Of a stretch of DNA of 32,000 nt, positions 1,525-13,136 are shown in pieces (position 1 is the first letter of the stretch; each line of letters opens with the position of its first letter). This DNA comes from Promethearchaeota archaeon (GTDB lineage Archaea > Asgardarchaeota > Lokiarchaeia > Sigyniarchaeales > SOKP01): contig JAUWGH010000008.1 in the NCBI GenBank assembly GCA_030606485.1, positions 60,001-92,000 on the forward strand. The letters are read 5' to 3'. A program made the translations under genes and the position numbers. Below the pieces are notes generated by a model. It made no database searches. It saw nothing but the letters and a program-made list of their open reading frames with translations, and was not told the DNA's origin.

Positions 1525-1688
1525 AATCTATTAACAAGACAAATTAAATCCATTAAAAATAATTTAATTAAATTTATTACCAGAAAAGTGGTATTTTCTA
1601 ACAAATGTTTAAATATTCGAATTTTCATCATATGAATTCGACAGAAATAAAGACATATAAGTTAAAATAAAATGGTGTAAATTATAAA

Positions 1689-2525
1689 TTAGAATTCAAT
1701 CATACCTGATTTTTTTAATAATATTAAACCATCTAAAGTCCATATTGGTCTCCACCAAGGAAAGTTCTGATAGAATATTCTAAGACCACCATCGTCTTGA
1801 AGACCATTAAACCAATTATCTGCTTCATTTTCGATAAACTTTTTATCCACAATATCGAGAGCATAATACCAATGTCGACCAAATAATGGATAACGTTCTT
1901 TATTATTTTCAAAAATACTCGGGAGTTGGGAGATAATATGTTGTAGCATCTTTTTCTCCTCTTTATTTTCTCCTAAGTATTTCAGATATTTAAAAAAAAT
2001 GGAATATTCATAAAATGTAAATTCTTCAGGAAGAGAGCTGTTTGAATAAAAATCTTTAACTTTTTTAAAAAATTCAGCGTCTTTTAACCCCCACTTTTTA
2101 AGAAAGCTTGATAAAGCAAATATTCTTAGCTCATCAGGACCACTCCACCATTCTTGAAATGGATAATTATACATATTTTTAGGAGGATATCTAATATATC
2201 CTTCTTCATTCTGTTCTTTAATAATCCAGTTAAATAATTGATTTGTGATTTCATTATCTATATATTCCAAGAGATCAAGAATATACATTGCAGTTTCAGC
2301 ACCAATCGCAGTACTATCTGGACATAATAAATCTGGTTCAATTCCATTACCAAAGCCTCCATCCAAATTCTGATATGCCACTAAAGCCTTAATCACGTCA
2401 TCTTTATTTCCGTTTTCAAAAAAAAATGAAAATAATTTTCTTTCAAGAAGTCTTCCATTTTTAAAAATGAACTCTTTTATCTTTTTAATCTGTTTTTCAT
2501 CAATAGTTCTCATAAAAAACACCAT
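1689..2525 (-). CDS. Prenyltransferase/squalene-oxidase-repeat-like (alpha-alpha toroid) protein of unknown function
   Basis: QW-like motifs YQNLDGGFGNGIEPD and LQDDGG, plus GRLLER..F and a WW motif near the C-terminus. An alternative start is the ATG at 2513. Confidence 0.6.
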   Translation of the reverse strand: MVFFMRTIDEKQIKKIKEFIFKNGRLLERKLFSFFFENGNKDDVIKALVAYQNLDGGFGNGIEPDLLCPDSTAIGAETAMYILDLLEYIDNEITNQLFNWIIKEQNEEGYIRYPPKNMYNYPFQEWWSGPDELRIFALSSFLKKWGLKDAEFFKKVKDFYSNSSLPEEFTFYEYSIFFKYLKYLGENKEEKKMLQHIISQLPSIFENNKERYPLFGRHWYYALDIVDKKFIENEADNWFNGLQDDGGLRIFYQNFPWWRPIWTLDGLILLKKSGMIEF

Positions 2526-10816: not shown

Positions 10817-11596
10817 TTAAATTTCTTTTAATAATTTTATTAGGAGTCTAGGATTATCTGTAATAATTCCATCTACTCCCATTTTAATATACTTTTTAAA
10901 TGATTTTTTTCTATTTACTGTCCATATGCTGAATAAAATATTATTTTCATGAGCATAGTTAATCATTTCCTCATCAGCAAAAAAAAAATAAGGATGAATC
11001 GCATAAAATTTATGTCTAACTGCAAAATCAACTATTGCTTTCCGATATTTGGAGTCCAAAACCCAACCAGGCTTAGTTATTTGAAGTGGTTCGGATTTTA
11101 AATTAGGATTTAATTGTTCGAATAACCCTGGTTGCGGCGTATGAAGTGAAGCTAATTTAATATCAGTGTTTAAACGTTGTAATTTAATTAATTCTTCCAA
11201 TCTAAATGAACTTACAAATACTAAATCCATTAAATCATACTTTTTTAGAAGACTATATAATGGCTCAATCAATCCAAGGGAACATATTTCTATTTGCAGC
11301 TTTGTATTTCCCCTCTTGAGATTGATAACTTCTTCCAGTGTAGGAATTTCAGCATCTATTACTTCATTACCACAATTTAATTTTTTTAATTCACTGAGTG
11401 TCATATCTTTAATTAATCCATCATAACCTGTTGTTCTTTCAGTATTCTCATCATGCATTATGATAATTTCATTATCTTTGGTTAAACGAATATCAAATTC
11501 GATATAATCAGCCCCAATCTCCACAGCTTTAGAAAACGCAATTAAAGTATTTTCAGGTGCTTCACGACTTGCTCCTCTATGTGCAAATACCAACAT
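10817..11596 (-). CDS. Glycerophosphodiester phosphodiesterase (GDPD)
   Basis: AHRGAS..APENTL.AF, IEFDIRLTKD...IMHD, IPTLEEV, SSF, WTVN and GVDGIITD.P. Confidence 0.93.
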   Translation of the reverse strand: MLVFAHRGASREAPENTLIAFSKAVEIGADYIEFDIRLTKDNEIIIMHDENTERTTGYDGLIKDMTLSELKKLNCGNEVIDAEIPTLEEVINLKRGNTKLQIEICSLGLIEPLYSLLKKYDLMDLVFVSSFRLEELIKLQRLNTDIKLASLHTPQPGLFEQLNPNLKSEPLQITKPGWVLDSKYRKAIVDFAVRHKFYAIHPYFFFADEEMINYAHENNILFSIWTVNRKKSFKKYIKMGVDGIITDNPRLLIKLLKEI

Positions 11597-11761: not shown

Positions 11762-11840
11762 TTTATATAAAAAGTAAGTTAATTAAAATATTAACTGTGG
11801 ATAAAAAAAAGAATTCAAAATAGAAGACGTTAGGTGGAGA
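11762..11840 (+). promoter_or_regulatory. Putative TATA box and RBS for the TFS-like gene
   Basis: TTTATATAA at 11762-11770 after an A-rich BRE-like stretch, and AGGTGGAG just before the GTG at 11844. The AT-rich background lowers certainty for the TATA box. Confidence 0.4.
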
Positions 11841-11843
11841 CAA

Positions 11844-12098
11844 GTGCAGTTTTGTCAAAAGTGTAATAATATTTTGATTCCAATAAAAGGGAAAAAGATA
11901 TTATACTGTAGAGCCTGTGATTATGAATATAAATTTAAAAGCAAGGAAGAATATAAAATAATTAAAAAAATCCATCATTCAGAGAGTGAAATGGCTCCAA
12001 TTGTCGTGGAGAAATCTGAAATGCATAAAAAAATTTCTGAAGATGATAGAAAAGCCTATGAAGAATTCTTTGGTAAACCAGAGAACCCATCATACTAA
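11844..12098 (+). CDS. TFS/RpoM (Rpb9/A12.2/C11)-like protein with the N-terminal zinc ribbon only
   Basis: GTG start with AGGTGGAG RBS. MQFCQKCNNIL...LYCRACDY matches the N-terminal Zn ribbon of the family. The 84-aa protein has no second ribbon. Confidence 0.75.
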   Translation: MQFCQKCNNILIPIKGKKILYCRACDYEYKFKSKEEYKIIKKIHHSESEMAPIVVEKSEMHKKISEDDRKAYEEFFGKPENPSY

Positions 12099-12255
12099 AA
12101 ATTAATCTCCAAGTTGGATATTGCTATTAATTTACTTTTTCTTCATTTATTTTGTATAATTTTATTTCAATCTGAAATAAAAAGATTATTAAAATTATAA
12201 AATTTAATTCAAATAATTAATTATTAATATCTATTCATTTTATTTGTGATTTGAA

Positions 12256-12639
12256 ATGTCTGAGGAAAAACCTAAAAGAAAAAAAGGCTTTGCAGGAATA
12301 TTATGGAAAGAAGTTGAACCTTTAAATTCCAACGAAAAATTTAAAAAAGAATTTGCTGAGACTACGGTTAATGTATTAATTAATCCTAAAGATCAAAAAC
12401 GGGCAGCTTTATTAAAAATATATAAGGGCACTATAGACGTAGATGATGTTAAAAATGATAAAGAAACACTGAAAAGTTTGAAATATGATGCTTTATTCGA
12501 AGCTTCTACCGAACTTTTTTTAAAAATCTTTACCGAAGGATTATCTACAGGTGCATTATTAAAAAAATGGATAACTCGTAAGATTAAATTACGTGGAATA
12601 AGGAAATTAGCCATTTTTGGAAAACTTATGGCATTGTAG
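12256..12639 (+). CDS. SCP2 sterol/lipid-binding-domain-like protein
   Basis: 127 aa with the SCP2-type tail DALFEAS.ELF..I..G.S...L..WITRKIKLRG. Confidence 0.6.
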   Translation: MSEEKPKRKKGFAGILWKEVEPLNSNEKFKKEFAETTVNVLINPKDQKRAALLKIYKGTIDVDDVKNDKETLKSLKYDALFEASTELFLKIFTEGLSTGALLKKWITRKIKLRGIRKLAIFGKLMAL

Positions 12640-12716: not shown

Positions 12717-13136
12717 TTAAGCTTTAAATTTAAAAATTGACATCAAACTAGTCATTTGATCTCTAAGACTTTGCTCATTTAATTTTAAAAAAGATTGGAT
12801 CATCACTTTTTTATCTTGAGGGGATATATCTTCAAATGAATCTAAAAATTGTTGGATATAAATGGTTTTTTTATCAGGATTACTTTTAATTTGAGAAATG
12901 ATTCTCTCAAAAAGTTGGTCTTTTTCAAGTTTCATTATTGTTTTATTACTAATTTGAGTAAACTCTGAAAAAAAGTCGTTTTTCAATAGGATATTATTAT
13001 AAATATCTTCAATCAACGAATCTTTAGAAGGAATTACTAACTCATCTAAGGAAGTAAAAAAATCAGAATATTGACTATTGATATTCTTAATTTTAGAAAG
13101 AATTAATTTGATTTTTTTCGAAATATTATTTTCCAT
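12717..13136 (-). CDS. Hypothetical helical protein (139 aa)
   Basis: Stand-alone ORF filling the gap between genes, with plausible composition and no recognised motif. Confidence 0.6.
   Translation of the reverse strand: MENNISKKIKLILSKIKNINSQYSDFFTSLDELVIPSKDSLIEDIYNNILLKNDFFSEFTQISNKTIMKLEKDQLFERIISQIKSNPDKKTIYIQQFLDSFEDISPQDKKVMIQSFLKLNEQSLRDQMTSLMSIFKFKA

Follow-up and report, generated by a model that had tools for sequence, protein, structure and literature searches.

A conserved single-ribbon TFS paralogue of TFS2-type build in Lokiarchaeia and other Asgard archaea

Introduction

Is a gene that encodes only the N-terminal half of a TFS-type transcription factor a broken copy, or does it specify a factor in its own right, and what would such a factor do at RNA polymerase? 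This question is raised by an 84-aa open frame on the forward strand of the window, by which we mean the whole stretch of 32,000 nucleotides that was analysed. An earlier note, made from the letters alone, had described the product as a protein with the N-terminal ribbon of the TFS/Rpb9 family only, followed by a linker and an acidic, aromatic helical tail, and encoded behind a strong ribosome-binding site without a frameshifted continuation. It had proposed profile searches, a tree with the TFS paralogues, an analysis of tail conservation and a search for a separate full-length TFS in the genome, and had considered that its reading would fail if the orthologues were full length or if the ribbon belonged to an unrelated zinc-finger family. 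The note had also supposed that the host might be an Asgard archaeon; it is indeed a Lokiarchaeia-type archaeon, with a genome of 3.75 Mb in 13 contigs, of which contig C12 carries the gene.

The build of one N-terminal ribbon has been described before, as crenarchaeal TFS2, which is without the C-terminal ribbon and has a Glu-rich predicted helix in its place (Fouqueau et al. 2017; PMC5715097); the novelty of the present case is therefore lower. In a supplementary table of the same study, Loki-, Thor- and Heimdallarchaeota are entered with two TFS factors each, which are not described (PMC5715097). A tfs2 knockout was not obtained in S. islandicus (PMC6249222), and the level of the TFS2 protein (Saci_1587) goes up after heat shock in S. 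acidocaldarius (PMC10653856). A biochemical characterisation of TFS2 was not found in the literature.

Results

Half-TFS has one ribbon, a linker and a tail helix

The open frame was confirmed, and both stretches quoted in the earlier note, FCQKCNNIL...CRACDY and SEDDRKAYEEFF, are present in its translation. We refer to the product as half-TFS. The gene and the parts of the protein are as follows (evidence in brackets).

11844..12098, + strand: half-TFS coding sequence, 84 aa, GTG start, TAA stop (ORF list, PF02150, orthologues, pN/pS)
11844..11936, + strand: N-terminal Cys4 zinc ribbon, residues 1-31, Cys 4, 7, 22 and 25 (PF02150, A2 alignment, AlphaFold, Foldseek)
11937..12023, + strand: linker, residues 32-60, motif Y-K-I-x-K-x-I-x-H ... 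P-I-V-V (RPB9 alignment, TFS_arch, hhalign)
12033..12071, + strand: predicted tail helix ISEDDRKAYEEFF, residues 64-76, at the place of the C-terminal ribbon (AlphaFold, orthologues, selection)
12072..12095, + strand: short acidic C-terminal end GKPENPSY, last residue aromatic (comparison of Loki-type sequences)

We analysed which parts of the TFS family are retained in half-TFS. As the earlier note had it, only the N-terminal ribbon is recognized: in Pfam, residues 1-31 match PF02150 (Zn_ribbon_RPB9) with 39.7 bits against a gathering cut-off of 25.2, and no match is found to PF01096, the TFIIS-type C-terminal ribbon. Indeed, half-TFS contains only two CxxC pairs, that is, one ribbon, and their cysteines (C4, C7, C22 and C25) are invariant in a 56-sequence alignment, A2. 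The NCBIfam model of archaeal TFS (TIGR01384, TFS_arch) aligns over profile positions 1-59 of 101 only, with 40.3 bits, under the equivalog cut-off of 64.75. Over these positions the ribbon and linker of canonical TFS/TFS1 are homologous to those of half-TFS, but canonical TFS/TFS1 continues into a C-terminal TFIIS-type ribbon with an acidic DE hairpin, and half-TFS is without both. The QTRSADE-type sequence of this hairpin is missing from the 84 residues, whereas both full-length paralogues of the same genome have the QTRSADE loop. The TFS4 model (NF047723, TransFacS4) gives 21.3 bits, under its cut-off of 120.

AlphaFold2, run with the 56-sequence alignment, predicts three strands within residues 10-30 and a helix at residues 66-76, joined by a floppy linker, in line with the linker and helical tail of the earlier note. 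The confidence of the monomer model is moderate (mean pLDDT 72, pTM 0.35), and the placement of the tail in it is not informative. In Foldseek, the top PDB matches are chain I of Pol II, III, I, IV and V (Rpb9, C11, A12.2) and TFS4 (7OQY); their E-values are weak (at least 0.04) because the domain is tiny, about 30 residues, and only the uniform identity of the matches is informative.

The comparisons above show that half-TFS retains the docking parts of the family without the family's catalytic parts. Without the C-terminal ribbon and the DE hairpin, half-TFS is not able to stimulate the cleavage of transcripts by the mechanism that is known.

Half-TFS is a real gene under purifying selection

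An absent C-terminal ribbon might mean that half-TFS is what is left of a full-length TFS, be it a truncated pseudogene or a product of misassembly or frameshift; the absence is, however, the sole support for such an origin. We looked for CxxC in all frames between the half-TFS stop and the gene that follows and found none, so that no frameshifted C-ribbon is hidden there, as had been read from the letters before. The pN/pS ratio within the genus is 0.10-0.24, the short length is kept in well over a hundred genomes, and the tail motif is conserved. The tail, in fact, is near-invariant in close orthologues and is under constraint when taken alone, with pN of 0.08 against pS of 0.87 in the most distant pair. 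On these grounds the frameshift or pseudogene explanation was rejected, and we give it practically no chance of being right; half-TFS is a real gene under purifying selection, more than a chance open frame.

The separate full-length TFS that the earlier note had proposed to look for is represented by two complete genes. One, TFS-A on contig C5 (111 aa), is of the canonical type and ends in TWREY; the other, TFS-B on contig C10 (about 119-122 aa), ends in KIGS. Both ribbons and the acidic QTRSADE loop are present in each.

Several observations on these two loci can be recorded here. In TFS-B (L002:1486-1854 (+) = G000:C10:277932-278300) the QTRSADEG loop is intact and the end of the C-ribbon reads ...CLKCGKMIKIGS, compared with the canonical TWREY. 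TFS-B is present in most genomes of the window's family and missing from the sister family f2. TFS-A adjoins a 77-aa zinc ribbon similar to ribosomal protein S27e, with the pattern CxxC...CxxC, and a 111-aa protein lies directly upstream of TFS-A on the same (minus) strand (L003:1029-1262 (+) and 1681-2016 (-) = G000:C5).

The gene appears monocistronic and sits in a conserved order

The following features surround the half-TFS gene.

11762..11769, + strand: TTTATATA, possible TATA box about 75 nt 5' of the start codon (sequence reading, inference only)
11833..11839, + strand: GGTGGAG, putative Shine-Dalgarno-like motif, 4 nt 5' of the GTG (sequence reading)
12136..12153, + strand: T-rich stretch 3' of the stop, T5 then TTTATTTT (sequence reading)
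10817-11596, - strand: conserved GDPD neighbour
12256-12639, + strand: 127-aa neighbour
12717-13136, - strand: 139-aa neighbour

The GGTGGAG agrees with the strong ribosome-binding site that had been noted. The TATA-box candidate is weak because the genome is AT-rich (G+C of the window, 30%). Half-TFS is followed by a 157-nt AT-rich spacer with T-runs, and its 5' neighbour is divergent; the gene appears to be monocistronic. The T5 and TTTATTTT stretch is a possible archaeal oligo-T terminator, and the flanking spacers gave no Rfam match, hairpin terminator or structured RNA.

The order GDPD (-), half-TFS (+), 127-aa protein (+), 139-aa protein (-) is the usual one in most of 80 Lokiarchaeial loci (L023-L102). 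In most of them one to three GDPD genes lie 5' of half-TFS on the opposite strand, the gene for the 127-aa protein starts about 155 nt 3' of half-TFS on the same strand, and that for the 139-aa protein is convergent. An RNase III-like gene (+) comes next after the 139-aa gene in 52 of the 80 loci; in the window its position is occupied by an HdrD/CCG-like gene. Neither the 127-aa nor the 139-aa neighbour has a Pfam match. We saw no functional link between half-TFS and its neighbours; the gene order may simply be inherited.

The short form is spread across Asgard archaea and Thermoproteota

We next consider how far the short form extends. A word-indexed search, limited to proteins of 46-147 aa, gave five relatives at 71-94% identity (four of 84-88 aa, one of 74 aa), and the tail KKISEDDRKA[YF]EEFF is invariant in all five. 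With the whole protein as query, 38 of 41 related genomes had a match; matches of the own family covered at least query positions 1-77 of 84, in open frames of 83-110 aa, with the tail present. Among 1.84 billion representatives, searched exhaustively with HMMER and without a length filter, 75 clusters reached E <=1e-3. Their lengths span 60-122 aa, and no cluster has an intact second ribbon; the single cluster with a third CxxC resembles a broken canonical TFS. The orthologues are, thus, not full length but short everywhere.

Beyond Lokiarchaeia, a profile built from Loki-type members (alignment A3) gave matches at E <=1e-6 in 111 of the 121 Asgard genomes sampled. All 20 of the Asgard matches that were extracted, from 17 GTDB families, are 85-100 aa long, have only two CxxC pairs, a linker of the type Y-x-[IV]...H-[ST]-x-[KR]-[ED] and an acidic, aromatic, helical-looking tail. 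The named members of the clusters with distant matches belong to Thorarchaeota, Thermoprotei and Methanomethylicia/Verstraetearchaeota, and the NCBI pipeline calls the distant short members "DNA-directed RNA polymerase subunit M". Short proteins of the same build (77-100 aa) thus occur across Asgard archaea, and also in Thermoprotei and Methanomethylicia. The nearest look-alikes in a protein-language-model atlas, which serve as a lead only, are clusters of 83-84 aa with PF02150 alone, from Promethearchaeota and Thermoproteota. A Thermoprotei member, P0089, used as query in a word-based search, gave one further relative only, and the A4 profile search reached no named Sulfolobales proteins. The locus scan was done with the closer alignment A3; in 84 of 86 loci the protein is 77-87 aa long, and length was not part of the scan pattern. 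On the level of sequence comparison, these results show the short proteins to be an old lineage across Asgard archaea and in Thermoproteota.

The half-TFS of one locus labelled Candidatus Hodarchaeota at NCBI (L042) is the same, residue for residue, as that of L022, from G020, a genome of the window's own GTDB family. For some MAGs (Hod-, Hermod-, Thorarchaeota) the class labels at NCBI are therefore unreliable, and the distribution was accordingly tallied by GTDB codes.

The linker is shared among the short proteins, and the tails do not align

The linker is kept across the Loki-type and the TACK/Thor-type short proteins (hhalign columns 4-63, probability 98.7%). The tails of the two types, in contrast, do not align, and hhalign stops at column 63. 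The Loki-type tail follows the motif [IV]-[ST]-x-[ED]-D-R-[KE]-A-[YFH]-E-[ED]-[FY]-F and is predicted to form an acidic, aromatic helix of about 13 residues, followed by a short acidic end with Tyr, Phe or Trp usually last; in the TACK/Thor type the tail is a longer helix, rich in E and with Y and F residues. As they cannot be aligned, the two kinds of tail may not share a function. The pattern of the genome-collection scan (A3) equals the tail motif, so that conservation of the tail in the 80 loci L023-L102 would be a circular argument and was not used. The last residue lies outside the search pattern, and it is Y, F or W in 60 of 75 distinct Loki-type sequences.

The conserved tail raises the possibility that half-TFS is a tethering adaptor, whose ribbon and linker dock on RNA polymerase while the tail recruits a third protein as a short linear motif, consisting of the DRKA[YF]EEFF helix and the terminal aromatic residue. 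Besides the frequency of this aromatic residue, it is consistent with such a role that, when orthologues are collected with the whole protein as query, the tail helix and the ribbon are equally conserved. A further point in its favour comes from a genome of the same family, where a 716-aa XPD-type helicase (L172:318-2468 (+) = G019:C42; DEAD_2, HBB and Helicase_C_2 in Pfam) bears the same kind of ribbon and linker at its N-terminus, matching the A3 half-TFS profile over positions 1-63 with E 1.4e-12. The fusion shows the module in use, in these archaea, for attaching other activities. However, the tail differs between the Asgard classes and TACK, and between half-TFS and its conserved neighbours (GDPD, RNase III and the two small proteins) no link is apparent. 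We consider an adaptor role rather unlikely.

Half-TFS is the most Rpb9-like of the three paralogues

For a comparison of half-TFS with its full-length paralogues, 101 sequences, none of them eukaryotic, were cut to their first 66 residues and placed in an unrooted maximum-likelihood tree; the resolution is limited because the alignment has 68 columns only. The window protein falls within a 24-member clade of Loki-type short forms (support 96/92), apart from TFS-A and TFS-B, each of which forms one clade (95/97 and 100/99, respectively). The N-terminal half of TFS-B groups among the short forms, away from TFS-A. Since the short forms make up a distinct clade across many genera, half-TFS is no recent truncation of either resident full-length gene, and this origin was rejected from the position of the window protein. 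The tree cannot tell a single loss of the C-ribbon from repeated losses.

In searches against solved structures, the best relative of half-TFS is metazoan RPB9 (E 2e-5 over query residues 2-59, which include the linker), followed by RPC10 and TFS4. The N-terminal half of TFS-A, on the other hand, is closest to TFS4 (5e-5), with RPB9 at only 0.06-0.6, and that of TFS-B to RPC10 (8e-4), with RPB9 at 0.013. The alignment of half-TFS with the eukaryotic Rpb9, C11 and A12.2 spans the ribbon and the linker motif K-I-x-H-E...I-I. Like half-TFS, with its build without cleavage parts, Rpb9 is cleavage-poor. Judged by these profile scores, half-TFS is the most Rpb9-like of the three paralogues of its genome over ribbon and linker, in a ranking of similarity and not a phylogeny.

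Might half-TFS, then, be a stably bound, Rpb9-like subunit of the Asgard/TACK polymerase and an archaeal precursor to the N-terminal halves of Rpb9, A12.2 and C11? The above E-values, reached via the linker, point in this direction. The distribution of the short form in Asgard archaea and Thermoproteota, moreover, parallels that of Rpo8, a subunit restricted to these two groups (PMC13257274). The same 2026 review, however, still has Rpb9 as the only eukaryote-specific polymerase subunit (PMC13257274). Rpb9, C11 and A12.2 are stable polymerase subunits that keep the second ribbon, in contrast to the one ribbon of half-TFS, and a tree without eukaryotic sequences lends such a descent no phylogenetic support. 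We know of no structure of purified Sulfolobus RNA polymerase that contains TFS2, which argues against tight stoichiometric binding. A stable Rpb9-like subunit thus seems to us very unlikely.

The ribbon belongs to the TFS/Rpb9 family

Small Cys4 ribbons are promiscuous, and it is conceivable that half-TFS has a role unrelated to RNA polymerase, such as nucleic-acid binding or an Elf1-like function, and merely resembles the TFS ribbon. TACK-type short proteins do match the archaeal Elf1 model weakly (E 8e-5 to 0.02, below the model's cut-off of 109 bits). Half-TFS itself, however, gives no Elf1 match in Pfam or NCBIfam, and a different gene of the genome, on contig C6, encodes an Elf1 domain; an identity with Elf1 (PF05129) was rejected on these two grounds. 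Furthermore, short relatives of all sub-types tested pass the PF02150 cut-off, and the similarity reaches past the ribbon into the TFS/Rpb9 linker. We therefore regard an unrelated role as highly improbable. The ribbon is not that of an unrelated zinc-finger family, the second point on which the earlier note had made its reading depend: it falls in PF02150 and, among solved structures, is closest to Rpb9, C11 and TFS4.

As a separate observation, the Elf1 zinc-ribbon profile gives two successive matches, of 36.5 and 25.7 bits, in one 261-aa open frame, with the Elf1-domain matches at L170/L171 (= G000:C6:131012-131386 (-)). This points to an Elf1-domain protein in which the ribbon region is tandem or extended.

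Discussion

By its sequence, half-TFS is an Asgard member of the known TFS2-type architecture. TFS2 (Sso0605 / Saci_1587), compared here by its description, has the same build of N-terminal ribbon and acidic predicted helix. It coexists with canonical TFS1, as half-TFS does with two full-length TFS genes, and the short proteins of Thermoprotei and Methanomethylicia are homologous to half-TFS over ribbon and linker at E <1e-3. The tails differ: that of the Loki half-TFS would be a short helix with a DRKA[YF]EEFF core, and that of TFS2 a long Glu-rich helix.

Two relatives indicate what the N-terminal ribbon and linker may do. TFS4 of Sulfolobales, an RNA polymerase inhibitor, has an N-terminal ribbon (PDB 7OQY chain Y) related to the half-TFS family profile at E 7.5e-5, and the N-terminal ribbon of TFS4 binds between the polymerase's lobe and its upper jaw (PMC9501531). 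Both TFS4 and, as predicted, half-TFS are non-cleaving TFS paralogues. TFS4, however, has both ribbons and inhibits via a shortened, basic tip of the C-ribbon inside the NTP channel, whereas half-TFS has no C-ribbon and an acidic tail. For C11, one study reports that the N-terminal-and-linker domain performs an independent, essential function in the termination and reinitiation of Pol III, and that the isolated N-terminal domain stimulates termination (PMC8501072).

Taken with a probability of roughly 0.6, our reading is that half-TFS is a conserved, non-cleaving TFS paralogue of TFS2 build that would dock on RNA polymerase. Its ribbon and linker would bind between the lobe and the jaw, at the site of TFS1, TFS4 and Rpb9. 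The docked protein may compete with the cleavage-competent TFS paralogues; alternatively, its acidic, aromatic tail helix may come to lie at the NTP-entry funnel's rim. In both cases, elongation, backtracking or initiation would be tuned without catalysis.

A broader possibility, which we regard as quite unlikely, is that half-TFS represents an ancient, docking-only module of ribbon and linker that is the closest archaeal kin of the N-terminal half of Rpb9, A12.2 and C11, and that acts as a semi-stable subunit or as an adaptor recruiting partners through its tail. The module would be common to Asgard archaea and Thermoproteota, with a distribution like that of Rpo8 and Elf1, and the XPD fusion would be an instance of the same docking trick.

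The gain over what was known is modest, as the architecture had been described before and the function of half-TFS is inferred. What the analysis adds is that a protein of this type is nearly universal in the sampled Asgard genomes, and that the Loki-type member, searched alone or as a family profile, has eukaryotic Rpb9 as its best solved relative. Half-TFS is, thus, a concrete candidate for work on how polymerase-docking ribbons diversified before eukaryotes, and the question of what TFS2 does now concerns, beyond Sulfolobales, the archaea most closely related to eukaryotes.
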